Below are positions 1,501 to 30,089 of a DNA stretch of 30,130 nucleotides, one piece after another. The stretch comes from a virus. The translations under genes were made by a program, and so were the position numbers. The DNA is taken from the IMG/VR virus record IMGVR_UViG_3300045988_128138. The stretch is one strand, 5' to 3'. The number at the start of each line of letters is the position of its first letter. Within the stretch, counting starts at the first letter, position 1. The notes under the pieces were generated by a model that made no database searches, was not told the origin of the DNA, and saw only the letters and a list, made by a program, of their open reading frames with translations.

Positions 1501-1554
1501 TTAATGTGTCGCTTTGCAAACAAATAAATTAAAATAGTAACGGGGGCTTTAACA

Positions 1555-4725: not shown

Positions 4726-4748
4726 GGGAGGTTTTTAACCTCCTTTTT
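4726..4748 (+). terminator. rho-independent terminator
   Basis: GGAGGTT-TTT-AACCTCC stem followed by TTTTT immediately after the stop codon at 4723-4725. Confidence 0.7.
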
Positions 4749-4791
4749 GTGTCGTTATGTTAGCATTATAATAAAAAAGTTAACAAATTCA

Positions 4792-4821
4792 TTGCATTAT
4801 AAAATGTTATTGTGGTAAAAT
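4792..4821 (+). promoter_or_regulatory. sigma70-type promoter (TTGCAT-18nt-TGgTAAAAT, extended -10)
   Basis: shares the block ATTGTGGTA(A/T)AAT with the consensus promoter at 25667..25695; 40 nt upstream of gene 4862. Confidence 0.5.
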
Positions 4822-4861: not shown

Positions 4862-5362
4862 ATGGCTGACAGCAAACGAGGCGCAAAAAATCGTTACGAG
4901 CGAGACGTAAAGCCTTATTTAGAAGAAATTAATAGAAAAGTACGTCAAGGCGTAACCGAAGCTGCTATAGCACAAGCGCTAGGCATAAGCGTTGCGACTT
5001 TAAGCAATTATAAAAATAAATACCCAGAATTTAAAGACGCTTTAAGTAAAAATAAAGGCGTGGAAGTATTACAACAATTAGTTAATGCGGGCATTAAAGC
5101 TGGTACTGGTTACTTTGAAAATAACGAAACTACAACTGTTATTATTGACGATAATGGAAAACCCAGCAAGAAACAAAAAGTAGTTAATAAAGTTTGGTAC
5201 CCGCCAAACCCAGCATTAAATAAGTTTTATGTTTTAAACTTTGGTAAAAATGAGGGCTATAACAGCGAACCATTAGATTATGAACTAAAGAAAGCACGTC
5301 AAGAACTAGACGAGGCCATACGAAAGGCTGAAAACTGGGACATTGATCTTGACGACAAATAG
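4862..5362 (+). CDS. HTH protein resembling an HTH-type phage terminase small subunit; role uncertain because a second TerS-like gene directly precedes TerL
   Basis: HTH segment GVTEAAIAQALGISVATLSNYKNKYPEFKDAL plus the C-terminal basic/aromatic segment KKQKVVNKVWYPPNPALNKFYVLNFGKNEGY, as in HTH-type TerS proteins. Confidence 0.45.
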   Translation: MADSKRGAKNRYERDVKPYLEEINRKVRQGVTEAAIAQALGISVATLSNYKNKYPEFKDALSKNKGVEVLQQLVNAGIKAGTGYFENNETTTVIIDDNGKPSKKQKVVNKVWYPPNPALNKFYVLNFGKNEGYNSEPLDYELKKARQELDEAIRKAENWDIDLDDK

Positions 5363-5398
5363 AATTTTTAGAAGAACCCAAAAAAAGAGGAGGTTAAA

Positions 5399-6052
5399 AT
5401 GGCATTTTATGTTTTAGACGAAAACAATAATAAAGTTGAGGCTTACGACAAAGAGGGCGTATTAGCAGTATTAGAGCAAGCCATAGAAAACGGCAGCTTA
5501 GAACAAATAACAGCTAATAGTGCTTTTGTTACAAAGCTTAAATGCTGCGTTGGTGGAGGCACTTATAAAATGGCCTTTATTACACAAGAAAAATACAACG
5601 AGCTAAAAACAAATAGTCAATTATCAAGTGATACATTTTATTGGATCACTGACGATACAACTTGCGAAGAAATAAACAACGCATTAACAAACATTAATAA
5701 TAATATTACAAGCATTAATAATAGGTTGGACGCTTTAGGTTTTAAGAGTGGCGTTTTTGTTGTTAGTGGCGTAAGCGCCGAATTAATAAGCACTAACAGT
5801 TTGAAAAAGCAAGGAAAATATGTAATTGCTAGTTTAGAATTAGTTAGCACAACAGCACTTAGTAATTTAGCAATTAGCGTACCAAGTGATTTTAAACCGA
5901 AAGAAAACACAAAAGTTAGAGTTGGTTATTTAAATAGTCTTGGCGTTCAAAATTATACTGATTGTACGCTTAACACGAATGGTATTTTAAATAATATACC
6001 AACTGGAATAGTGGTGTTAACAATTAAAAATGCGGGTTGGGAGGTTAGTTAA
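5399..6052 (+). CDS. hypothetical protein (217 aa), N/T/S-rich, probably a beta-rich structural or host-recognition-like protein
   Basis: intact ORF with RBS GAGGAGG; resembles a structural protein by composition only. Confidence 0.4.
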   Translation: MAFYVLDENNNKVEAYDKEGVLAVLEQAIENGSLEQITANSAFVTKLKCCVGGGTYKMAFITQEKYNELKTNSQLSSDTFYWITDDTTCEEINNALTNINNNITSINNRLDALGFKSGVFVVSGVSAELISTNSLKKQGKYVIASLELVSTTALSNLAISVPSDFKPKENTKVRVGYLNSLGVQNYTDCTLNTNGILNNIPTGIVVLTIKNAGWEVS

Positions 6053-6053
6053 T

Positions 6054-6575
6054 ATGGCATACTTTAACGGAAAAAAAGTAATAAGCGCTTTTGGTGGTAT
6101 GCAAAAGCCAGAAGAATACGGATTCGTTAATATGATGAACGTAACATACGATCCAACCTCAAAGCTTTATATTAAACTACCTACAACTGGGAAAGTATTC
6201 AAAGATATTGAATTACAAAAAGACATTTATTTAATACCTAGTAATATCAAAAAAGGCGTAAAAATTGAGGGAGTTACTGGAACTTACAAGGGAACTGGAA
6301 CTTACAAGGGAACTGGATCAACAATAAGTACTGTCACAATGACAATTAATGCTGTTGGTACTAATGTAACAGCTTATTTTAATTATTTGAATAATGGCGA
6401 TATTGATGTCAACGAGAAAATACTAGCTTTAGGTGAAAGTGAAAGCATTGAAGCTGTTAAAGGAACTTTGGTATTTTTTAGTGGAAATACACCTAGTGAT
6501 ATTACGGGTAACGCTCAACTAATAACTAGCGGTGTATATCAAATTATGGGTAATGTAACATTTTTATTTGAATAA
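6054..6575 (+). CDS. hypothetical protein (about 174 aa), G/T/N-rich, carrying an internal TYKGTG x2 duplication
   Basis: preferred start ATG 6054 (MAYFNGKKV) with GGAGG 10 nt upstream, just after the stop at 6050-6052; the track start 6030 lacks an RBS. Confidence 0.4.
   Translation: MAYFNGKKVISAFGGMQKPEEYGFVNMMNVTYDPTSKLYIKLPTTGKVFKDIELQKDIYLIPSNIKKGVKIEGVTGTYKGTGTYKGTGSTISTVTMTINAVGTNVTAYFNYLNNGDIDVNEKILALGESESIEAVKGTLVFFSGNTPSDITGNAQLITSGVYQIMGNVTFLFE
6279..6314 (+). repeat. perfect 18-bp tandem duplication (GGAACTTACAAGGGAACT x2)
   Basis: read directly; in frame, encoding GTYKGT GTYKGT. Confidence 0.8.
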
Positions 6576-6589
6576 AGAGGAGTGAATTT

Positions 6590-6883
6590 ATGAATTTAAA
6601 TTTAAAAAGAATAACATTAACTGGAACTACTACAAAAGTAGAATTTAAAGAAGTGTGCGGTAAATGGTTAGTAAAGAATTTTACTGACGCCGATATTTAC
6701 GTATCTTTTGAAGCTGGAAGCGACGGCGAATTAGTAGAAGCAAACGCCGTAAAAATTAAAAGCAATTACGGGCAAATTGTAATAGGTAATGAAGAATTAC
6801 AGTATACCAATTTATTTAAAACAAATGCAATTTATATAAAAGGCACGGGCGAAGTTGAAGTGCAACAATTGTGTTTTAAATAG
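6590..6883 (+). CDS. hypothetical protein (97 aa)
   Basis: intact ORF with RBS AGAGGAG. Confidence 0.4.
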   Translation: MNLNLKRITLTGTTTKVEFKEVCGKWLVKNFTDADIYVSFEAGSDGELVEANAVKIKSNYGQIVIGNEELQYTNLFKTNAIYIKGTGEVEVQQLCFK

Positions 6884-6895
6884 GAGGAAATAATA

Positions 6896-8239
6896 ATGGC
6901 TGAAAATATATATTTTCCTTTAAATGGTGGTAGTGGTAGTGGAAGTGAAGCTGCTCCTCATATTACGATTACAGTAGATGATTTAAAATATGATTATAGC
7001 GGAACTTTAACCGCAGAACAATTAGCCATCTTAGCTGAAGATAATGCTTACATTAATTTTGATATAGTAATTTCAAGCGATTCAAAGATAAGATTTATTT
7101 TAAATAAAAATGAAGTGATACCAAATGAAGGCACTCCTATTAATTATGTATTTGCTGCTCCAATTAATCTGGGTGAAGGCGAACCTATGACATTTTCTTT
7201 ATTTATTACTGTTGAAGATTCATCTTATATTAGTTCAGTGTTTAATCCAGCGTTTTATCTAAAGGGTGTAAAAGTTAATGGAACAGAATTAGATTCACCT
7301 AATGATATAGCCGAACTCAATCTTAAAACAATTAATAATCAATCAATAGTTGGAACAGGTGATATAACTGTCGAAGGTGGTGCTGAAGTAATTGAAAAAG
7401 GCATTAATTTAAGTACTAACAAATTCACTACAGTATTGACAGCTGAGGAATTTAACAAATTGAAGAATAATGAAGCTATTATAAAAACCACAACCACATA
7501 CTTAGATGTTATTCCATTAGTTTTATATGGAAGCAATCCATCTGTAATAAATGGAACTGCTATTGGTAGTGATTATGATATGTTAGTATATGCTATTCCA
7601 AGTCCTTTAACAGACGATCCAGCAGTATATATATTATCAATACAATCAAATACATTAGATTCGTTTTCTATAAAAACTATACAAGTTAATGAACCGGTGT
7701 TAGGAAAATCATCTACAAATACTTATAGTGCAATATCAGATTATCCTTTACTTGGTTTTTCATCAAGGGAAGCAGATATACTTCAATTGCATATGTCAAA
7801 CAGTATATATATAGGAAAATTTACTTATGACTCTACTGGTAGTTCATATGTATTTTATGAAGGAAATGATAGTAAACATACTTATTTCGTAAGTAAATTA
7901 ACTGGTATTATTGGTTTAGAAAATGATGATAAAAACTATGCTTCATTTGAGATAGTATTAAGACTTAACGAAAAGAATCCAAATACAAGTGTAATTGAAG
8001 ATAAATATTATTCATGTATTATACATATTTCAAGTATAACGTCTAATGCCTCAGAAGGAACGTTCACTATTTATGATACTGCAACTAATAAAATAACATA
8101 TGTAATATTGAGAATATGTGCTAATTCAAGTGCTTCACCTATGTTTGAAATGGATTATCTAAAAGCATATCAAGATGGTGTGGAGATAACTTCAACATTT
8201 GCTAGTAAAATAAGTTGTATTTATTTGTATTTATTATAA
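6896..8239 (+). CDS. hypothetical protein (447 aa) with atypical codon usage; probably horizontally acquired cargo
   Basis: RBS AGGAGGAAA; Asp is mostly GAT and Ser mostly TCA/AGT here, whereas the rest of the genome prefers GAC/AGC/GCG; no motif recognised. Confidence 0.45.
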   Translation: MAENIYFPLNGGSGSGSEAAPHITITVDDLKYDYSGTLTAEQLAILAEDNAYINFDIVISSDSKIRFILNKNEVIPNEGTPINYVFAAPINLGEGEPMTFSLFITVEDSSYISSVFNPAFYLKGVKVNGTELDSPNDIAELNLKTINNQSIVGTGDITVEGGAEVIEKGINLSTNKFTTVLTAEEFNKLKNNEAIIKTTTTYLDVIPLVLYGSNPSVINGTAIGSDYDMLVYAIPSPLTDDPAVYILSIQSNTLDSFSIKTIQVNEPVLGKSSTNTYSAISDYPLLGFSSREADILQLHMSNSIYIGKFTYDSTGSSYVFYEGNDSKHTYFVSKLTGIIGLENDDKNYASFEIVLRLNEKNPNTSVIEDKYYSCIIHISSITSNASEGTFTIYDTATNKITYVILRICANSSASPMFEMDYLKAYQDGVEITSTFASKISCIYLYLL

Positions 8240-8263
8240 TTAAAAAGAGGCAATAAAAATATA

Positions 8264-8998
8264 ATGAAACATTATGAAAATACTAGCCAATTTTATAATA
8301 GTATTGACTGGGCTAATTGCAAAGCACAAGTAACGCAAGAGCGCTTAAAAGACGGCGCTTTGTATTGCGAGCATTGCGGTAAAATAATATTAAAGAGTTT
8401 TAACCCTAACGAAAGAAACAACAGCAAAGCCGTTGTTTATCACCATAAAATATACTTAAACAATAATAATGTAAATGACGCAAGCATTAGTATTAACCCA
8501 GCAAATATAGCTATACTTCATTGGCAGTGTCATAACGAAGTACACGGCCGTTTTACTGGTGGCTATGAAAAGCCAGAAAGAAAAGTATATATAATTACTG
8601 GTGCGAGCTGCAGCGGTAAAACAACCTTTGTTAAAGAGCGAGTACAAGAGGGCGACATAGTACTAGACATAGACGACTTATGGCAAGCTATAAGCGGGCA
8701 ACAGCGCTATATCAAACCTAATGCTTTAAAACCTATTGTGTTTAATTTAAGAAACACAATAAAGGATCAAATAGCAAAAGGCGCTGGCACTTGGCGCAAC
8801 GCTTATATTATCGAAAGCCTACCAATTGCAATAGATAGAAAGAACGAGGCCGAGAAATACAAAGCACATAATGTAGAAGTAATAACAATGGACGCAACAA
8901 GGGAAGAATGCTTACAACGTTTATATGCTGATCCAAAAGGAAGAAGCGTTAAAGATTATGAAAAATACATAAATGATTATTACGACAATTATATTTAG
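8264..8998 (+). CDS. HNH endonuclease fused to a P-loop kinase-like (PNK/AAA_33-like) domain
   Basis: N-terminal CEHCGK...(N)...HWQCHNEVHG HNH zinc-finger nuclease motif; C-terminal Walker A ITGASCSGKTTF followed by DIVLDIDD (Walker B-like), as in polynucleotide/nucleoside kinase-type P-loops. Confidence 0.6.
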   Translation: MKHYENTSQFYNSIDWANCKAQVTQERLKDGALYCEHCGKIILKSFNPNERNNSKAVVYHHKIYLNNNNVNDASISINPANIAILHWQCHNEVHGRFTGGYEKPERKVYIITGASCSGKTTFVKERVQEGDIVLDIDDLWQAISGQQRYIKPNALKPIVFNLRNTIKDQIAKGAGTWRNAYIIESLPIAIDRKNEAEKYKAHNVEVITMDATREECLQRLYADPKGRSVKDYEKYINDYYDNYI

Positions 8999-9008
8999 AG
9001 GTAGCAAT

Positions 9009-9299
9009 ATGTTAGAGTTATTATTTAAGCTGGTGTTATGCCATTTAGTTGGCGACTATGTTTTACAAATAGATTATATAGCAAAGAGCAAGAGCAATAA
9101 TGTATATCATTTATTAGTACATTGCTTGTTATATTGTTTACCGTTTTACATAGTGTTTGGCTTTGTATGGCAACTCATACCATTATTAGTATTACATATT
9201 GTAATAGACTTATTAAAGGCAAGATATAAGTTAATACCGTATTGGCTAGACCAATTATTACATTATGTTACTTGCTTATTATATTTATTTATAAGTTGA
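9009..9299 (+). CDS. small polytopic membrane protein (possibly DUF3307-like)
   Basis: about 96 aa, very hydrophobic, with the motif HLVGDYVLQ; ATG 9009 follows RBS AGAGG that overlaps the upstream stop. Confidence 0.45.
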   Translation: MLELLFKLVLCHLVGDYVLQIDYIAKSKSNNVYHLLVHCLLYCLPFYIVFGFVWQLIPLLVLHIVIDLLKARYKLIPYWLDQLLHYVTCLLYLFIS

Positions 9300-9480
9300 A
9301 TAAAAAAAATTTTAACCCCCCACTTCAAAAAAATATTTTTGCACGGGGTAGACTGTAAGAGGGGGAGCTAAGAAGCGCACAAGCCGAATTTTTGAAATTT
9401 TGGTTTGAAAACAAAAACAAAAGAAAAAAACAGCGAAAAAATAATTATAAAAATTAAAGTTTATAATTAATGTGTCGCTA
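9300..9480. promoter_or_regulatory. candidate cos / packaging-initiation and late-regulatory region
   Basis: 181-bp non-coding stretch just upstream of TerS/TerL with an unusual GC-rich patch (AACCCCCCAC...GCACGGGGTAGACTGTAAGAGGGGGAGC) in an AT-rich genome, homopolymer A/T palindromes, and the recurrent TGTGTCGCTATGTTAG motif at its 3' end; the nearby HNH gene suggests cos-type packaging. Confidence 0.35.
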
Positions 9481-9500
9481 TGTTAGAAAGGTGGCTTAAA

Positions 9501-23532: not shown

Positions 23533-23561
23533 GAAATACACAAGTAATATACAAAACTATA

Positions 23562-23590
23562 AAAAAAGCCTTTAAAACGGGCTTTGTAAT
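23562..23590. terminator. bidirectional rho-independent terminator between the convergent RBP and int genes
   Basis: stem AAAGCC/GGCTTT with a 9-nt loop; on the - strand it is followed by a 7-T run (complement of A7 at 23561-23567). Confidence 0.6.
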
Positions 23591-23700
23591 AATCACATTT
23601 CAATGATTTATAACTTTATAGAAAAATATAAAAATAGGCTGCAAACGTTGATATAACAACACTTGCAACCTTTTTTAATATTCTTTAAAATTATATGAAT

Positions 23701-23751
23701 TAGCGACACATTACCGACACAATATACAATAAATATACAAGCAATATACTA
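23701..23751. promoter_or_regulatory. putative attP arm region: three phased direct repeats AATATAC(A/T)A at 23721, 23732 and 23743, plus a fourth copy at 23546-23554
   Basis: repeats spaced 11 bp apart, immediately beyond the integrase stop codon; arm-type sites of tyrosine integrases typically cluster this way. Confidence 0.45.
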
Positions 23752-24765
23752 ATATTTAAATTTGTTTATGACTTTTATTAAGTCGTCAATATTCTTGTGT
23801 GTATAATGTTTAGTAATGTTATTGTTGCTATGGCCTATAATTCTTGAAACGGCTGTGTCGTTTAATTCGAGCCTATCACATTGACTAATAAATGTGTGTC
23901 GTGTTTCGTGCGGCGTATGATCCATTTTTAAAAACTCCATAACGGGCTTAAAAATATGACGTATGTAATAGTTGTAAGAAATAGGCTTTTTATCTTTTTC
24001 AAATAAGTATTTTTTATTATTTTCTAAACTAAATTTAACAAAGTCTAAAATATCGTTATGTATTGGAATAAACCTTACACCAGCTGGCGTTTTAGATTTA
24101 GCAATATAAATGGATCTATCTTTTAAGTTAATATTTTCTAAAGTTACCTCTAATAATTCAGTAATACGAGCGCCAGTATAAAGCTGAATTAGTATATAAT
24201 TAATAAATGTTTCGTTTTTATGTTTCCAAAGTGTTTTTATCTCTTTTTGAGTAAATGGCACTTTGGGTTTTTTTATTTCTACTTTTGGCATTTCTATAAA
24301 ACTTGCGTAATTTTTTTCTACTATTTCATTTTTTAAAGCATAATCATAAAGCATATTTATAAAGCTTTTAAAATGCTTAATTGTTGCGTTGCTTTTATTC
24401 TTATCTATTATTTCTTGCAAATGATATGTTTTGATAGACGAAAAAGCCATATTGTGTAATGGCTTAAAATGATTATAAATACTTATATAATTTTTAGCGG
24501 TACGAGGAGTTATATTTTCATATTTTCGTTTGCTCCAAGCGTTGTAAACATCATTAAAAGTCAAGTCTTTATTATCTAGCAAATAAGGTTTTTCATTATA
24601 TGCGGTTAGATATTTTAAAGCTTCTTGGCGTTTTTCAAAATAGCCAATATATTTATATATTTGGCTTCCGTTTTCTTTATAACCAATTGTTACCCTAGCC
24701 GCAAAAGGCTTGCGGCGTTTACCACTTAATTTAATAATTGATCCATAACCATTTGGGAGCCTCAT
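23749..24765 (-). CDS. int: tyrosine integrase
   Basis: 338 aa; N-terminal arm-binding-like domain; catalytic RITELLEV (Arg), HETRHTFISQ (His-x-x-Arg) and GHSNNNITKHYTH (Tyr). Confidence 0.85.
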   Translation of the reverse strand: MRLPNGYGSIIKLSGKRRKPFAARVTIGYKENGSQIYKYIGYFEKRQEALKYLTAYNEKPYLLDNKDLTFNDVYNAWSKRKYENITPRTAKNYISIYNHFKPLHNMAFSSIKTYHLQEIIDKNKSNATIKHFKSFINMLYDYALKNEIVEKNYASFIEMPKVEIKKPKVPFTQKEIKTLWKHKNETFINYILIQLYTGARITELLEVTLENINLKDRSIYIAKSKTPAGVRFIPIHNDILDFVKFSLENNKKYLFEKDKKPISYNYYIRHIFKPVMEFLKMDHTPHETRHTFISQCDRLELNDTAVSRIIGHSNNNITKHYTHKNIDDLIKVINKFKY

Positions 24766-24932
24766 ATATCTATATACTCCTTTAATTTCTTTTCATAAAT
24801 TACATAAGTATATTTACTAGACGTTTTAATTGCGGATCCAAAAGGGAATAGACCACGTTGTAAACCTATTCTAACGCTTTGAGGACTGCAGCCTAAAGCT
24901 TCTGCAACGTCATTAACAGTTATTTTACTCAT
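24762..24932 (-). CDS. xis: excisionase-like DNA-binding protein (56 aa)
   Basis: not in the ORF track; MSKITVNDVAEALGCSPQSVRIGLQRGLFPFGSAI is an excisionase-type HTH; RBS GAGGAG; its stop overlaps the int start as ATGA. Confidence 0.6.
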   Translation of the reverse strand: MSKITVNDVAEALGCSPQSVRIGLQRGLFPFGSAIKTSSKYTYVIYEKKLKEYIDI

Positions 24933-24938
24933 TTTCTT

Positions 24939-25274
24939 TTACTCCTCAAGTTGTAGATAAAGGCGCATTATTTCTTTGTAAATGTTTGCTTTTTCTGCAG
25001 CGCTTATTTCCTCATTTTCAAATAATAATTTAGCACGTGAAATTAAATCGTAGCTTGTAGCGTCGCCAATGGCGAAGTAGTCAATATTAACGCCTAAAAC
25101 ACTTGCTATTTTTTCTAATTCTTTTAAATGAGGCGAGCGCCTACCTATTTCATAGTTACTTATTGTTGCCCGTTGTATTTCTAACTTGTCCGCTAGTTGC
25201 TGTTGGGTTAGGCCTCTAGTTTTCCTCAGTATTTTAATTTTATGGCCTACCGAACTAACGTTCGTATTTTCCAT
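24939..25274 (-). CDS. cI-like repressor (XRE-family HTH, no peptidase domain)
   Basis: KILRKTRGLTQQQLADKLEIQRATISNYEIGRRSP HTH; 111 aa; transcribed divergently from the + strand early genes. Confidence 0.75.
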   Translation of the reverse strand: MENTNVSSVGHKIKILRKTRGLTQQQLADKLEIQRATISNYEIGRRSPHLKELEKIASVLGVNIDYFAIGDATSYDLISRAKLLFENEEISAAEKANIYKEIMRLYLQLEE

Positions 25275-25394
25275 TATTTACACTCCTTTAAATGTGATTT
25301 ATTTGTGTTATTATAAAAAAAATGCTACACAACGCAACATTTATTTAAATGATACCATATTAAATTTAGTATATGCAAATGGAGGAGTTTAACA

Positions 25395-25595
25395 ATGAAT
25401 AACAATTTTTATTTAGAAGAAATTTTCGAAAAATTATCAAAAGAATTAACATATAAAAATGTTGAAAGTAAAAATAAACTTTGTCTATTTTTAGAACAAA
25501 CTACAATGGCTGTTAAATTAGGACATATTACGCTAGAACAAGCCGACAATTACATAGATAGAGCGTTTACTTTATACGATACTCTACTAACATAG
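25395..25595 (+). CDS. hypothetical protein (66 aa), first gene divergent from the repressor
   Basis: RBS GGAGGAG; no HTH recognised. Confidence 0.4.
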   Translation: MNNNFYLEEIFEKLSKELTYKNVESKNKLCLFLEQTTMAVKLGHITLEQADNYIDRAFTLYDTLLT

Positions 25596-25666
25596 GTTAG
25601 TAGTTATTAAATGTGTCACTATGTTTACAAAAAATAAAAAAAATACAAAAAAAGTAAACAAAAGTA

Positions 25667-25695
25667 TTGACAAAGTAAAAATATTGTGGTATAAT
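25667..25695 (+). promoter_or_regulatory. consensus sigma70 promoter (TTGACA-17nt-TGgTATAAT)
   Basis: perfect -35 at 25667-25672, a 17-nt spacer, an extended -10 TGG and a perfect -10 at 25690-25695; drives 25747..26428. Confidence 0.75.
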
Positions 25696-26170: not shown

Positions 26171-26428
26171 ATGATAGCGTATAGATTAGAAAGCAATAAA
26201 GAATTAGAAATAGTTAATAATAGTTGGTTGTATGATGTTGACAAAGATTTTATAAGTAAAAAAGAATACATAGCAGCAGCTAAAAAGTTTACTGAAAAAG
26301 CAAACAAAGAATTTAACACAAATTATAGCTGGGTTGAATTGTTTGGCGAACCGTTAAGCTGTGGTTATAGGTATTGTAAAAAATGTGGTACGTTTTATTG
26401 GAATAGTGAAGAGTGCGAGTGCTTATAA
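26171..26428 (+). CDS. hypothetical protein (85 aa) with a C-terminal Cys4-6 zinc-ribbon-like cluster
   Basis: CGYRYCKKCGTFYWNSEECEC; RBS AAGGAGG. Confidence 0.45.
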   Translation: MIAYRLESNKELEIVNNSWLYDVDKDFISKKEYIAAAKKFTEKANKEFNTNYSWVELFGEPLSCGYRYCKKCGTFYWNSEECECL

Positions 26429-26467
26429 TGTGTCATTATGAAACAAATATAAGGAGGAGTAAACAAA

Positions 26468-26680
26468 ATGGAACAAATTAAAAGATTAGAATTAAAAGTT
26501 TTACGTGTTAAAAATGATTTGACGCAAAGACAAGCTGCAAAATTATTAGGTGTAAGCTTAGCGACTTACAATTTAATTGAAAATGGTAACCGTCGTGGAT
26601 CCGTAGATTTTTGGAATAAAGTACAAAAACAATTTAATTTAACTGGGGAGGAAGTATGGAACTTACAAAAGCACATTTAA
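26468..26680 (+). CDS. Cro-like / XRE-family small HTH regulator
   Basis: 70 aa; LTQRQAAKLLGVSLATYNLIENGNR HTH. Confidence 0.6.
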   Translation: MEQIKRLELKVLRVKNDLTQRQAAKLLGVSLATYNLIENGNRRGSVDFWNKVQKQFNLTGEEVWNLQKHI

Positions 26681-26832
26681 GACTATTAACTAACAAACAA
26701 AGTAAAGCGTATGCGTTTAATGTGCCATTACGCAACGTTTTAAAGCCTTGTGTAAGCGAACGAAAATAAAAAGGTGGGTAAATATTCAACTCAAACGCTC
26801 ACAAACGCTATAGCAAAGGAGGAAAGCAAGCA

Positions 26833-27046: not shown

Positions 27047-27664
27047 ATGAGAAGTTATAAAATAGAGGCTGGGCAAAGTTCAGTAAACCCTATAAGAGAT
27101 CAAGACGACTTATACAATTGTATTCATTTTTGGGAAAAGAAAAGAGATCAAGCTCCAACCGAAGCAAAAAGAAAAAATTATGATAGAAACTACTTAATGT
27201 TTCTTGTTGGTATTAATACAGCGTTACGATTTAGCGATTTAAGACGTTTGACTGTAGAAAAAGTCAAAAACAATTATATTTACCAGCGAGATAAAAAAAC
27301 TGGTAAAGAAAATAAGATCACTTTAAATAGTGACATTTACAAAGAAGTAATGGCCTATATCAAGCGCAACGCTTTACACGATAGCGATTATTTATTCTGG
27401 AGCAGCAAAGGTGTTAATAAGCCTCTTACAAGGGTAATGGGCTACAACATTATGCAGCAAATGAAAGAGGGTTGCAAAATAGCATATAACATTGGCACAC
27501 ATTCGTTAAGAAAAACATACGGCTACTGGTTTTATAAACAAACTGGCGATATAGTGGCCTTGCAAGCAATTTTAAACCATAGCACACCAGCACAAACGTT
27601 GATCTATATAGGTATGCAGCAAAAGCAAGTTGACGAAAAGAGAAAAGCATTTGTTTTAAAGTAG
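27047..27664 (+). CDS. small tyrosine recombinase (catalytic domain only, FimB/FimE- or Xer-like in size)
   Basis: 205 aa; ALRFSDLRRL (Arg I), GTHSLRKTYG (His-x-x-Arg), LNHSTPAQTLIYIGM (His...Tyr nucleophile); no N-terminal core-binding domain. Confidence 0.65.
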   Translation: MRSYKIEAGQSSVNPIRDQDDLYNCIHFWEKKRDQAPTEAKRKNYDRNYLMFLVGINTALRFSDLRRLTVEKVKNNYIYQRDKKTGKENKITLNSDIYKEVMAYIKRNALHDSDYLFWSSKGVNKPLTRVMGYNIMQQMKEGCKIAYNIGTHSLRKTYGYWFYKQTGDIVALQAILNHSTPAQTLIYIGMQQKQVDEKRKAFVLK

Positions 27665-27672
27665 GTGGTTAT

Positions 27673-27825
27673 ATGGGTTGTATTGCTGGAAGCGGAAAGA
27701 AAGGTTATTTAATTAATAAAATAAAGCAATTGACTAATAAATATAAAAATAGCAGATTATACAGCAAAAATATTAGTCAATTAGAAAAAATACTTAACAA
27801 ATTAGAAAAGGAGGCTAAAGAATGA
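27673..27825 (+). CDS. hypothetical small protein (50 aa)
   Basis: not in the track; RBS GTAGGTGG; overlaps the next gene as ATGA. Confidence 0.3.
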   Translation: MGCIAGSGKKGYLINKIKQLTNKYKNSRLYSKNISQLEKILNKLEKEAKE

Positions 27826-28037
27826 AAATAAATAGAGAAGATCCATTATTAAATCACTTTTTAGGGTGCAAAGTTGAAATAACTTTTAAAAACGGATCTA
27901 AAGCAGTTGGGGTGCTGTCAAAAAACGAAAATAAGTATTACGCAGCAGAATACAAGTTAAAGTATTTAGATACATTAAGCGGTTGTCAATTAATATTTTA
28001 TAAATCGCAAGTTAAAAAGATAGAGTTAGTTTCATAA
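27822..28037 (+). CDS. hypothetical protein (71 aa)
   Basis: RBS AAGGAGG. Confidence 0.4.
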   Translation: MKINREDPLLNHFLGCKVEITFKNGSKAVGVLSKNENKYYAAEYKLKYLDTLSGCQLIFYKSQVKKIELVS

Positions 28038-28057
28038 GAGGTACTAAATGAAAACAT

Positions 28058-28366
28058 ATGAAGAAAGAAAGATTGTTTGATATTAATAGTTTAGAAATTA
28101 ACCCTTTATATATTTCGCCTACTGAAAAAAGAAAATGGACTGTTGCTTTTACAAAATGGTGCAACGATCAATACGATAAATATGGCTCACAATATGGTTT
28201 ATTTTGTTGCAGCTTTATGAGAATTTGTGATTTATGCGAAATGAAAAAGTGTAATGGTTGTGCTGATTGTGTAGAAACTATAAAAGAATGGTTTAAAAAA
28301 CAAGGCAAAGAAATTCCTTACAAAAATTATAATTTTGAAGAAATTTTAAAAGAGATAGAAGAATAA
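28058..28366 (+). CDS. hypothetical Cys-rich protein (102 aa), possibly zinc-binding
   Basis: CCSFMRICDLCEMKKCNGCADC cluster. Confidence 0.4.
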   Translation: MKKERLFDINSLEINPLYISPTEKRKWTVAFTKWCNDQYDKYGSQYGLFCCSFMRICDLCEMKKCNGCADCVETIKEWFKKQGKEIPYKNYNFEEILKEIEE

Positions 28367-28425
28367 ATAAAAAACCGAAATATACTTTATAGAACATTTT
28401 TAAAGAGAAAAAGGAGGTATAAAAA

Positions 28426-28707
28426 ATGCGTAATAAAGTTTGTTGGGACGTTCAAAAATCGAAAGGTAAAGATCAATATACATATTATTGTTTTATTGAT
28501 GATCCTAATAATAGACCAATGGAAAGACGAGCAATACAAAGTACTATTGAAGATATTGAAAATAAAATAAAAAAACTAACTCCAGTTGTTAACCTTGTGA
28601 ATGAGTTAAGAAAAAATTTAAAAGAGTTAGAAACTTTAAAACGATTAATCGACGAGCGAAATTATAATCAAGCAATGGAGGAAAGCAACGATGGAAAAAA
28701 TAATTAA
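28426..28707 (+). CDS. hypothetical protein (93 aa)
   Basis: RBS AAAGGAGG. Confidence 0.4.
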   Translation: MRNKVCWDVQKSKGKDQYTYYCFIDDPNNRPMERRAIQSTIEDIENKIKKLTPVVNLVNELRKNLKELETLKRLIDERNYNQAMEESNDGKNN

Positions 28708-28936
28708 ATTATTAGAAGAAAAAGGTATTATTAAAATTATTAAAGCAGCTGAAAAAAAGGCTGATATTACGGCTGGAATAATGAATATCGAAAAAACTGA
28801 TAATGAGTTATTAATTGGTATAAAAACCGCACTTCTACGAACTGCTGTTAAAAATGAGGAACTTTTTGACGCAATTATTGATTATGCGTTTGAAGCTGTA
28901 GCAAAAGAAGTAATGGAACTTATCAAGGAGGAATAA
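28691..28936 (+). CDS. hypothetical protein (81 aa)
   Basis: RBS GGAGGAAAGC; overlaps the upstream gene. Confidence 0.4.
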   Translation: MEKIIKLLEEKGIIKIIKAAEKKADITAGIMNIEKTDNELLIGIKTALLRTAVKNEELFDAIIDYAFEAVAKEVMELIKEE

Positions 28937-28940
28937 AAAA

Positions 28941-29120
28941 ATGAAGGGAATAATAATTATAGGAATTGTAATATTCAGTTTAAACATACTAGCTGATATT
29001 ATTATAGTTATTGGCAAGTTATTAGACCAATACGAACTTGATAATAGTTGTGTTAGTGTTACTATTATAACTGATATTTTTTGGTTGGTATTTTTTATAC
29101 TTTTCTTAACTCAATTATAA
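28941..29120 (+). CDS. small hydrophobic membrane protein (59 aa, two TM segments)
   Basis: not in the track; RBS AAGGAGG; MKGIIIIGIVIFSLNILADIIIVIG...IFWLVFFILFL. Confidence 0.4.
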   Translation: MKGIIIIGIVIFSLNILADIIIVIGKLLDQYELDNSCVSVTIITDIFWLVFFILFLTQL

Positions 29121-29142
29121 GAATTTAAAGGAGGAATAAAAA

Positions 29143-29529
29143 ATGGAAGAAAAACAACTTAAAGAAATATTAGAAAAGCACCAAAAAATGCTTAATAATG
29201 AAGCTGGTGGAGAATTAGCAAATTTAAGCAATGCAGATTTAAGACGTGCAAATTTAAGCGGTGCAGATTTAAGCGGTGCAGATTTAAGCGGTGCAGATTT
29301 AAGCGGTGCAGATTTAAGACGTGCATATTTAAGACGTGCATATTTAAGCGGTGTAAATTTAAGCTATGCATATTTAAGACGTGCAAATTTAAGCGGTGCA
29401 GATTTAAGCAATGCAAATTTAAGCGGTGCAGATTTAAGCTATGCACATTTAAGACGTGCAGATTTAAGCGGTGCAGATTTAAGCGGTGCAGATTTAAGCT
29501 ATGCAAAAATCTATTACACAAAATTCTAA
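29143..29529 (+). CDS. pentapeptide-repeat protein
   Basis: about 19 consecutive A(D/N)LS(G/Y/R/N)-type pentapeptides (ADLSGADLSGADLRRAYLRRAYLSGVNLSY...); RBS AAAGGAGG. Confidence 0.8.
   Translation: MEEKQLKEILEKHQKMLNNEAGGELANLSNADLRRANLSGADLSGADLSGADLSGADLRRAYLRRAYLSGVNLSYAYLRRANLSGADLSNANLSGADLSYAHLRRADLSGADLSGADLSYAKIYYTKF
29213..29510 (+). repeat. about 20 tandem 15-nt repeats (unit close to GATTTAAGCGGTGCA), in frame within the pentapeptide-repeat gene
   Basis: read directly; near-perfect nucleotide-level periodicity. Confidence 0.85.
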
Positions 29530-29540
29530 AGAGGTAGACA

Positions 29541-29765
29541 ATGAATAAATTAACTATTAATTGGATCATTAGTACGCTTAATAAAAGCGGTATTAATTCA
29601 AAAAAGCAAATAAGAGAACGGTTGCAAAATGCTAGTATCGAAGAATTAGAAGACTTGGAAAAATCAATACAAGGAATTATTACAGAAAAGATTTTAGAGC
29701 AAGATTTTAAGAAAACATACGCAACAATTGTAAAGCCGCAAGACGTTTTAAACAAAAAAGATTAG
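29541..29765 (+). CDS. hypothetical protein (74 aa)
   Basis: RBS AGAGG. Confidence 0.4.
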   Translation: MNKLTINWIISTLNKSGINSKKQIRERLQNASIEELEDLEKSIQGIITEKILEQDFKKTYATIVKPQDVLNKKD

Positions 29766-29780
29766 AAGAGGAGGCCAACA

Positions 29781-30089
29781 ATGGCAAAATTAAATAAAAC
29801 GACTGAAATAGTCAAAACAATTTTATTAGAAAATGAAGCAGCAAGATCAGACGATTTTATATTAATATTAGAAGTTTTTAAAACTTTTGGAATTAAAGAA
29901 GACGACGAAATAGGCGACGTTTTCAAAGTGCATAAAGAAAAGGCATTGCCTAGTATTCACTCAATTGTAAGAGTAAGACGCTTTATACAATCTAAACACC
30001 CAGAATTAGTAGATCAAAAAGCAATACAGCAAAGAAAAGAAGAAGAAAAGATTTATAAAAAGTGGGCTAGAGAAAAGAGAGCAATATAA
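29781..30089 (+). CDS. hypothetical protein (102 aa); same gene whose 3' end appears at 1..77
   Basis: RBS GAGGAGG; basic C-terminus. Confidence 0.45.
   Translation: MAKLNKTTEIVKTILLENEAARSDDFILILEVFKTFGIKEDDEIGDVFKVHKEKALPSIHSIVRVRRFIQSKHPELVDQKAIQQRKEEEKIYKKWAREKRAI

Follow-up and report, generated by a model that had tools for sequence, protein, structure and literature searches.

The stretch of DNA analysed here, referred to throughout as the window, comprises the 30,130 nucleotides of the IMG/VR virus record IMGVR_UViG_3300045988_128138. Its first and last 119 bases are identical, so that the window represents a closed circular contig of ~30,011 bp, and it holds the complete circular genome of a temperate phage of ~30 kb. 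The GC content is 32%, the ribosome-binding sites are strong and Gram-positive in type, and the gene order is that of temperate siphophages. An integrase, a 56-aa HTH protein and a cI-like repressor are encoded leftward; beyond cI lie a divergent rightward early operon, replication genes and a gene for a ParB-N::methylase, then a second operon at 4862-9299, and finally the terminase, head, tail and lysis genes. The genes of the immunity region are as follows.

23749-25274, minus strand: integrase, 56-aa HTH protein and cI-like XRE repressor
24939..25274, minus strand: cI-like XRE repressor, 111 aa, a single HTH domain followed by a two-helix hairpin at the C terminus; proposed binder of the sites described below
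25395..25595, plus strand: p66, small acidic product of the first gene of the rightward operon, given for context
26468..26680, plus strand: cro-like XRE protein, 70 aa, encoded between two sites; possible second binder

Circular contigs of ~30 kb that are near-identical to the window are present in several metagenome assemblies. A megablast of 25 kb of the window gave no match to known phages, no cultured relatives of the phage were found, and searches of the window genome for Rfam families and tRNA genes returned nothing relevant and no genes, respectively. Homologues of the cI-like protein number more than 340 and reside mostly on ~30-kb contigs. The region at ~27700-29800 is a local cassette-exchange region without motif copies at its borders; here the otherwise near-identical contigs L130-L137 carry differing sets of small genes, and a pentapeptide-repeat protein at 29143-29529 belongs to the version of this variable set found in the window. 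A 71-aa protein encoded in the same region (27822-28037, plus strand) has a weak Sm-like match (Pfam SM-ATX, E 7e-4, below the family cutoff) and could be a candidate RNA binder of the Hfq/Sm type. The operon at 4862-9299 (plus strand) stands apart between the early and packaging genes and has an extended -10 promoter-like element to itself. Its products are an HTH protein resembling terminase small subunits, four proteins without a family match, an HNH-plus-P-loop protein and a small hydrophobic protein that probably resides in the membrane; the relatives examined share none of them.

A preliminary description of this DNA, made from the letters alone, had reported seven intergenic copies of a motif of about 20 nt with the core TGTGTC. 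All seven exist, with TGTGTC-RYT-WTG found at each place and TGTGTC starting at 1505, 4748, 9471, 25612 and 26429 on the plus strand and at 23721 and 23710 on the minus strand. The 16-mer said to be shared by two copies, TAATTAATGTGTCGCT, occurs exactly at 1498 and 9464, and a 19-mer pattern allowing at most 3 mismatches has 4 matches in the window against 0.11 expected. Placement in non-coding DNA also holds: 7/7 copies fall within the intergenic 6.4% of the genome, and TGTGTC is absent from the sense strand of genes in the window. The statement that every copy lies 0-25 nt after a stop codon fails for three of them, as the copy at 9471 lies 171 nt past the stop of the upstream gene and the two int copies lie 27 and 38 nt past the int stop. 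Two diverged copies had been missed (25319-25340 and 26717-26738), which brings the total to nine sites in 30 kb, all of them intergenic, when the tandem at int is counted as two. Seven of the nine are on the plus strand among plus-strand genes and two are on the minus strand after int, and all seven copies originally reported are co-oriented with local transcription. The sites in the window are listed here.

1501..1522, plus strand: TTAATGTGTCGCTTTGCAAACA, directly after the stop of the helicase-loader-like gene 1162-1500
4744..4765, plus strand: TTTTTGTGTCGTTATGTTAGCA, after the terminator hairpin 4726-4743 plus a T5 run
9467..9488, plus strand: TTAATGTGTCGCTATGTTAGAA, scoring 20.6 bits in a matrix built without the window sites
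23693..23725, minus strand: tandem pair of strong left halves (TGTGTCG) 11 bp apart, after int, with no right half
25319..25340, plus strand: AAAATGCTACACAACGCAACAT, the switch-region site, absent from the preliminary description
25608..25629, plus strand: TAAATGTGTCACTATGTTTACA, after the p66 gene and its hairpin 25584-25603
26425..26446, plus strand: ATAATGTGTCATTATGAAACAA, overlapping the stop of gene 26171-26428, 21.9 bits
26717..26738, plus strand: TTAATGTGCCATTACGCAACGT, the best-scoring copy (23.2 bits), also absent from the preliminary description

Several of these placements recur in relatives. The position of site 1501 is kept in the divergent relative L140, where the equivalent of site 4744 likewise follows a terminator; in the window 27 bp separate the latter site from a downstream extended -10 promoter-like element (TTGCAT at 4792-4797 and TGnTAAAAT ending at 4821). 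Site 9467-9488 comes after an A/T-only hairpin (9442-9469) and adjoins the SD of the gene before terL (start 9501). The switch site has homologues in L140, L142, L143 and L146. Site 25608 ends 37 bp upstream of a perfect consensus promoter at 25667-25695, and the order gene, hairpin, site seen at p66 recurs in many relatives. The SD of the cro-like gene starts 5 nt past site 26425-26446, and site 26717 lies just past that gene, within a doubtful 37-aa ORF call, with homologous copies after cro in L140, L142 and L146. The int tandem, which is followed by a terminator hairpin on the minus strand (23671-23636), is kept in L128-L137, L140 and L141. Taken together, nearly all of the transcription units that can be inferred have their boundaries marked by copies. 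The non-coding region near int is also flanked by two direct repeats, AAATAyACAAGyAATATAC, 80% identical at 23534-23563 and 23731-23760, which from their sequence look like integrase arm-type sites bracketing attP.

The related genomes compared comprised close variants (L128-L137), a 72%-identical genome (L140), distant syntenic genomes (L142, L146) and loci related in the immunity genes only (L148-L150, L153). The motif is present in all of them in slightly varied forms, and these comparisons show that the unit is longer than the reported ~20 nt, being a quasi-palindrome of 21-22 bp. The site can be written AATG-Y-G-Y-C-R N3 Y-G-W-A-A-C-A-T-T, and the reported motif is its strong, well-conserved left half. 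The form in the window is AATGTGTC..., and elsewhere ATGCGTC or ATGCGCC is found, followed by ACGCAAC, GAAACAT or TTTGTTAGCA. A 22-column matrix has the consensus W-W-A-A-T-G-Y-G-Y-C-R-N-W-W-Y-G-W-A-A-C-A-W with G6, G8, C10 and G16 essentially invariant, in a logo that is partly circular because the sites described were picked with the family matrix. Positions 3-11 mirror positions 15-23 about position 13 (AATG/CATT, C10/G16, R11/Y15, T5/A21), and the main consistent break in symmetry is an A at position 18, where a C would complete the palindrome. Given this dyad symmetry, the TGTGTC...TATG of the preliminary description corresponds to the strong left half plus the beginning of a weaker right half. 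Full palindromes of the form TGYGYCR-N3-YGRCRCA (17-mer) occur 5 times in the family loci, and 3 of these immediately precede the cro-like gene; unrelated viral contigs used as controls (0.96 Mb) contain none.

A matrix built from relatives alone recovers all window sites on the plus strand and none on the minus strand: 1501, 9467, 25319, 25608, 26425 and 26717 score at least 14 bits and 4744 scores 10.6, and Markov-shuffled genomes give ~1.1 matches at 12 bits. An exact search with the pattern AATGTGTCNNTATGTT over viral contigs returned 120 unrelated single matches and was uninformative. Relatives selected by TerL (77% identity) differ in GC content and lack TGTGTC ahead of terS. Between near-identical genomes (L122, L128, L129, L130), motif positions 11-12 (4754-4755, 9477-9478, 25618) flip by transitions, G/A and C/T, while the remainder of the site is constant. 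Resemblances to boxA, the Spo0A box, cre, the DnaA box, the LexA box and integron attC were considered, and none of these elements agrees with the site at its invariant positions. A short reading frame starting at the conserved ATG was also considered and rejected, as there is no consistent stop position, frame preference or SD.

To describe the distribution of the sites across the family, 56 viral loci were retrieved through an alignment of cI homologues, and the 54 that do not derive from the phage of the window were used for counts of unique sites scoring at least 15 bits. On their lytic-sense strand these loci contain 89 sites; the cI strand has 13, about the count expected from a background of 0.16 per 10 kb-strand. 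In L156, the cI-strand sites just downstream of cI are again sense-oriented and lie behind terminators. Sites are concentrated between genes, with 78/102 (76%) outside ORFs of at least 70 aa compared with 17% of the DNA (p about 3e-39), and they are sense to both flanking genes in 64 cases and antisense in 17 (p about 7e-8). The conservation of individual bases in the motif holds across family GC contents of 32-58%. An SD is found 4-9 nt downstream of the 22-mer in about 40% of family sites, and a GC-rich hairpin without a U-tract ends 0-3 nt upstream in about 15%, compared with 3% of controls. A hairpin, placed upstream of the motif, is present in 31% of family sites and missing from 69%, and an obligatory upstream hairpin was rejected on this basis. 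Hairpin, site and SD can form a compact cassette in which the hairpin sequence is variable (e.g. L178:6658, L168:8810, L176:14149 and L173:16149 on the minus strand).

The presence and absence of genes among the loci provides insight into which protein goes with the site. All 9 loci with a cI homologue that were examined first carry the motif, and what is common to the first-examined motif-bearing loci, in their sequenced parts, is a cI-like repressor (44-86% identity) and a cro-like protein (39-65%). Loci that have an integrase-like gene and another repressor lack the motif (L151, L152, L145, Streptococcus phage Javan310, phi105). The motif thus travels with the cI module and not with the integrase-like gene, the ParB-methylase or the 4862 protein. 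The integrase-like gene (27047-27664, plus strand) encodes a 205-aa tyrosine-recombinase-like protein that consists of the catalytic domain only and keeps all catalytic residues by eye. It is a conserved early gene in more than 100 uncultured phages with integrases of the tyrosine or serine type, is also present in L148-L153 and L138, and sits just before HNH/terS in other phages. This protein is distinct from the integrase and unlinked to the motif. As a small integrase-like protein it had been considered as the binder on the precedent of the SPbeta integrase-fold repressor SroF, and the pattern of presence and absence led to its rejection. The excisionase-like 56-aa HTH protein was likewise rejected, since its gene is absent from serine-integrase phages that still have sites.

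Variation in the repressor may go together with variation in the sites. The recognition helix of cI, R-A-T-I-S-N-Y-E-(I/V)-G-R-R, is almost invariant, and L207 and L208, which have a cI-like match with a quite different helix, have essentially no sites. In the related loci L194 and L197, where the helix reads R-G-A, 5/6 sites have ACGCGTC instead of ATGCGTC, with L196 as a partial exception in this small sample of two or three loci. cI and the cro-like gene nearly always co-occur, so that either product could be the binder. The link of the site to cI could partly reflect shared ancestry. In L194, cI and the sites are kept and a cro-like gene is not seen among the first lytic genes beside cI, which tilts the choice between the two towards cI. 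An AlphaFold model of cI (pLDDT 80), predicted with an alignment of database homologues, has a five-helix HTH domain and a C-terminal two-helix hairpin, and the nearest solved folds are the dimeric XRE repressors DdrO, SinR and the phi106 repressor; on this modelling cI is predicted to be a dimer, which would fit an operator with two half-sites. A separate observation concerns p66, as a small acidic helical protein is the first gene product of the lytic operon across the family, usually with a hairpin and then a site behind it. Counterparts are found in L148 (9274-9468), L153 (9265-9465), L189, L176 and L173, have no family match, and may be analogues of Cro or of an antirepressor.

The switch copy is in operator position between two promoters predicted from sequence. 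The rightward predicted promoter has its -10 at 25309-25314 and the leftward cI promoter a predicted extended -10 at 25354-25349; the 21-bp core of the site (25321-25341) fills the gap between the two, placing both predicted start points at its edges. In this face-to-face arrangement (25309-25354) the predicted divergent transcripts would overlap by just the 21-bp site, and each would begin with the site or its complement. The dispersed copies follow the first lytic gene, the replication genes, a terminator and int, precede the packaging genes, and lie to either side of cro.

These observations lead us to propose, with moderate confidence, that the sites are dispersed operators of the XRE repressor cI with a role similar to that of stoperators. 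The preliminary description had suggested the recognition site of a phage regulator, which is the best-supported reading, although most of the candidates it named have fallen away and the best one, the cI-like repressor, was not among them. In this proposal a cI dimer would bind the near-palindrome of 21-22 bp, and in lytic growth the cro-like protein, which the preliminary description did name, may bind there too. The switch copy would serve as a classical operator that covers the start points of both divergent promoters, while the dispersed copies would hold repressor at transcription-unit boundaries in the lysogen. Repressor bound there would most likely stop read-through and leaky transcription, presumably by blocking elongation, and keep nearby promoters shut, a role matching that demonstrated for the stoperators of mycobacteriophage L5 (PMC9283540, PMC6550527). 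No site lies over the consensus promoter at 25667-25695. A symmetric dimer alone does not account for the good half always being upstream, and the proposal does not account for the tandem of half-sites past int.

A bolder form of the same proposal, which we regard as doubtful, would see here a second and independently evolved silencing system of the stoperator type, in which a small dimeric XRE repressor uses one perfect and one deliberately imperfect half-site. It would entail, equally tentatively, that the sites act as orientation-dependent stops for RNA polymerase at unit boundaries in several hundred uncultured phages of ~30 kb with probably anaerobic Clostridia as hosts, and, as a speculative addition of the same standing, that some sites together with a U-less hairpin form repressor-dependent terminators ahead of the next ribosome-binding site.

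The composite of site with SD (~40%) or hairpin (~15%) suggests instead a role at the RNA level or at gene starts. In the first of these readings, the sense RNA copy of the site would be a cis element bound by a protein or an antisense RNA that controls translation, mRNA decay or processing. The strictly sense orientation, the SD starting 4-9 nt past the 22-mer and the excess of abutting hairpins over controls all agree with it, as does the variation at positions 7, 9, 11 and 15, which is almost solely by transition (Y/R) and tolerable by G-U pairing. A weak plus-strand promoter-like site at 23663-23691 would also give rise to an RNA that begins exactly with the complement of the tandem near int. 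Such a plus-strand RNA is speculative, promoter-like matches being common in this AT-rich DNA; it would enter the 3' end of int in antisense and head for a terminator-like hairpin (23893-23919, plus strand). Dyad symmetry and full palindromes are unexpected for a single-stranded signal, however, and so is a switch copy between two -10 elements. Copies after int or before promoters have no SD to control, most sites are without a hairpin, no RNA-binding protein is common to the family, there is no Rfam match, and the cI leader pairs poorly with the other copies (13/18 with four wobbles, counted by hand). We therefore consider an RNA-level element rather unlikely.

The second reading, a gene-start signal in the form of a promoter or promoter-proximal element for host RNA polymerase modified by a phage factor, fares less well and is in our view improbable. 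Sites that are intergenic, sense-oriented, upstream of genes and often behind a terminator-like hairpin are what it would call for; in some copies the flank on the 5' side, W-W-A-A-T, looks like the last bases of a -10 hexamer, and the repeats of T1, TLS and Stevie are similar in layout (PMC4319613, PMC11447400). The sites nevertheless lack a conserved -35 or TGn element, and a -10-like block appears only occasionally; a sigma-70 promoter was rejected on these grounds by hand comparison, in agreement with its dismissal in the preliminary description. With an SD 4-9 nt past the site, a start ~7 nt after the -10-like block would fall on or past the SD. The genome has no RNA polymerase or sigma-like gene, and the copies that follow int or precede terminators would have no gene to act on. 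Hand comparison also led us to reject a sigma-54 promoter, as the spacing falls short by 2 nt and the sites lack the GG/GC invariants.

Very little probability attaches to a recombination sequence at module boundaries, whether as a target of the recombinase-like protein 27047-27664 or as a homology linker for gene swaps. The copies do lie at gene and module boundaries in a mosaic family whose near-identical contigs differ by cassettes, and the recombinase-like protein keeps its catalytic residues. The distribution of this gene and of the sites is discordant in both directions, as in L152 a recombinase-like gene of 92% identity goes with another repressor and no sites, and L142 has about 9 sites and no such gene. 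The variable cassette region (27.7-29.8 kb) is not bordered by copies, and base-specific conservation over GC contents of 32-58% needs a reader and not mere homology.

The candidates named in the preliminary description can be dealt with briefly. A parS-like site of the ParB-N::methyltransferase, or a binding site of the 4862 HTH protein, is scarcely credible: both proteins are predicted to act on DNA, yet the sites persist in L148 and L146, in whose sequenced parts neither gene was found, the 4862 protein matches terminase small-subunit families, and in Pfam the fusion has ParB_N and methylase domains alone, with no separate DNA-binding HTH domain. A late activator box, also suggested there, is discounted since a single copy precedes the late operon.

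To our knowledge, stoperators have so far been documented only in actinobacteriophages, and their mechanism is debated between steric block and specific contact with polymerase. Our literature search for the term returned actinobacteriophage papers together with passing analogies for T1-like phages and a cyanophage, and no prior description of the present motif or phage family was found. If the proposal of dispersed cI operators is true, genome-wide silencing by dispersed repressor sites would be a general prophage solution and not a mycobacterial oddity, and a simpler protein would be available for studying polar roadblocks. The cI helix and its site would also provide a signature for recognising a large family of uncultured phages and grouping its members by immunity. 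The unexplained repeats of T1-like phages could further be compared with the site network.

Among known systems, the antiterminator sites of the q-ut/nut type that the preliminary description had offered are not supported, as neither an N- or Q-like antiterminator nor the anatomy of a nut site was found, and the window genome in particular has no detectable N-like gene. Lambda-type nut sites (boxA plus boxB hairpin) share with the present sites a conserved linear sequence by a hairpin on the sense strand of early operons; they differ in that the hairpin here is upstream and confined to a minority of sites, that there are 4-9 copies against two, and that the DNA is dyad-symmetric. T1-like phages carry sense-oriented intergenic repeats of 21-22 nt with a suspected role at gene starts (PMC4319613, PMC11447400). 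Those of T1, TLS and Stevie are unrelated in sequence (aaATAGCACnnnTTGnTAAAA) and lie ~76 nt upstream of starts, and the phages are virulent and without a repressor, unlike the temperate phage of the window.

A further comparison is with the operators of cI and Cro (lambda, 434, P22) and of SinR-type dimers. As in these, two half-sites of ~9 bp, one matching the consensus and the other degenerate, flank a centre of 3 bp, and a copy lies between divergent promoters by the repressor gene. Classical operators cluster at the switch and have no more than 1-2 distant copies, whereas here most copies are distant, within operons and uniformly oriented.

It is this dispersal that recalls the Cluster A phages. 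Cluster A phages have one repressor site in the region of the lytic promoter and many more in the narrow gaps between genes, the stoperators of L5 are intergenic, oriented with transcription and silence gene expression, and the site consensus shifts slightly along with the repressor between related phages (PMC9283540, PMC6550527). Like L5 (gp71), Bxb1 and TipsytheTRex, the present phages combine one switch copy with many copies in short intergenic gaps; the sites often touch stop or start codons, and their orientation follows transcription on both arms. The molecular details differ. The L5 site is a 13-bp asymmetric sequence present in more than 20 copies and bound by a monomer with an HTH and a 'stoperator' domain (PMC9283540), whereas here a 21-bp near-palindrome occurs in about 9 copies and the candidate binder is a 111-aa XRE protein with a single HTH, a helical tail and a predicted dimeric state, unlike the two-domain L5 repressor. 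As neither a 13-bp asymmetric site nor a monomeric two-domain repressor is found, the sites are not members of the L5 system. The hosts differ as well, those of the window's phage family being uncultured and probably Clostridia and those of Cluster A being Actinobacteria. By analogy with both systems, the layout of the sites would be best described as stoperator-like and their architecture as that of ordinary XRE operators.
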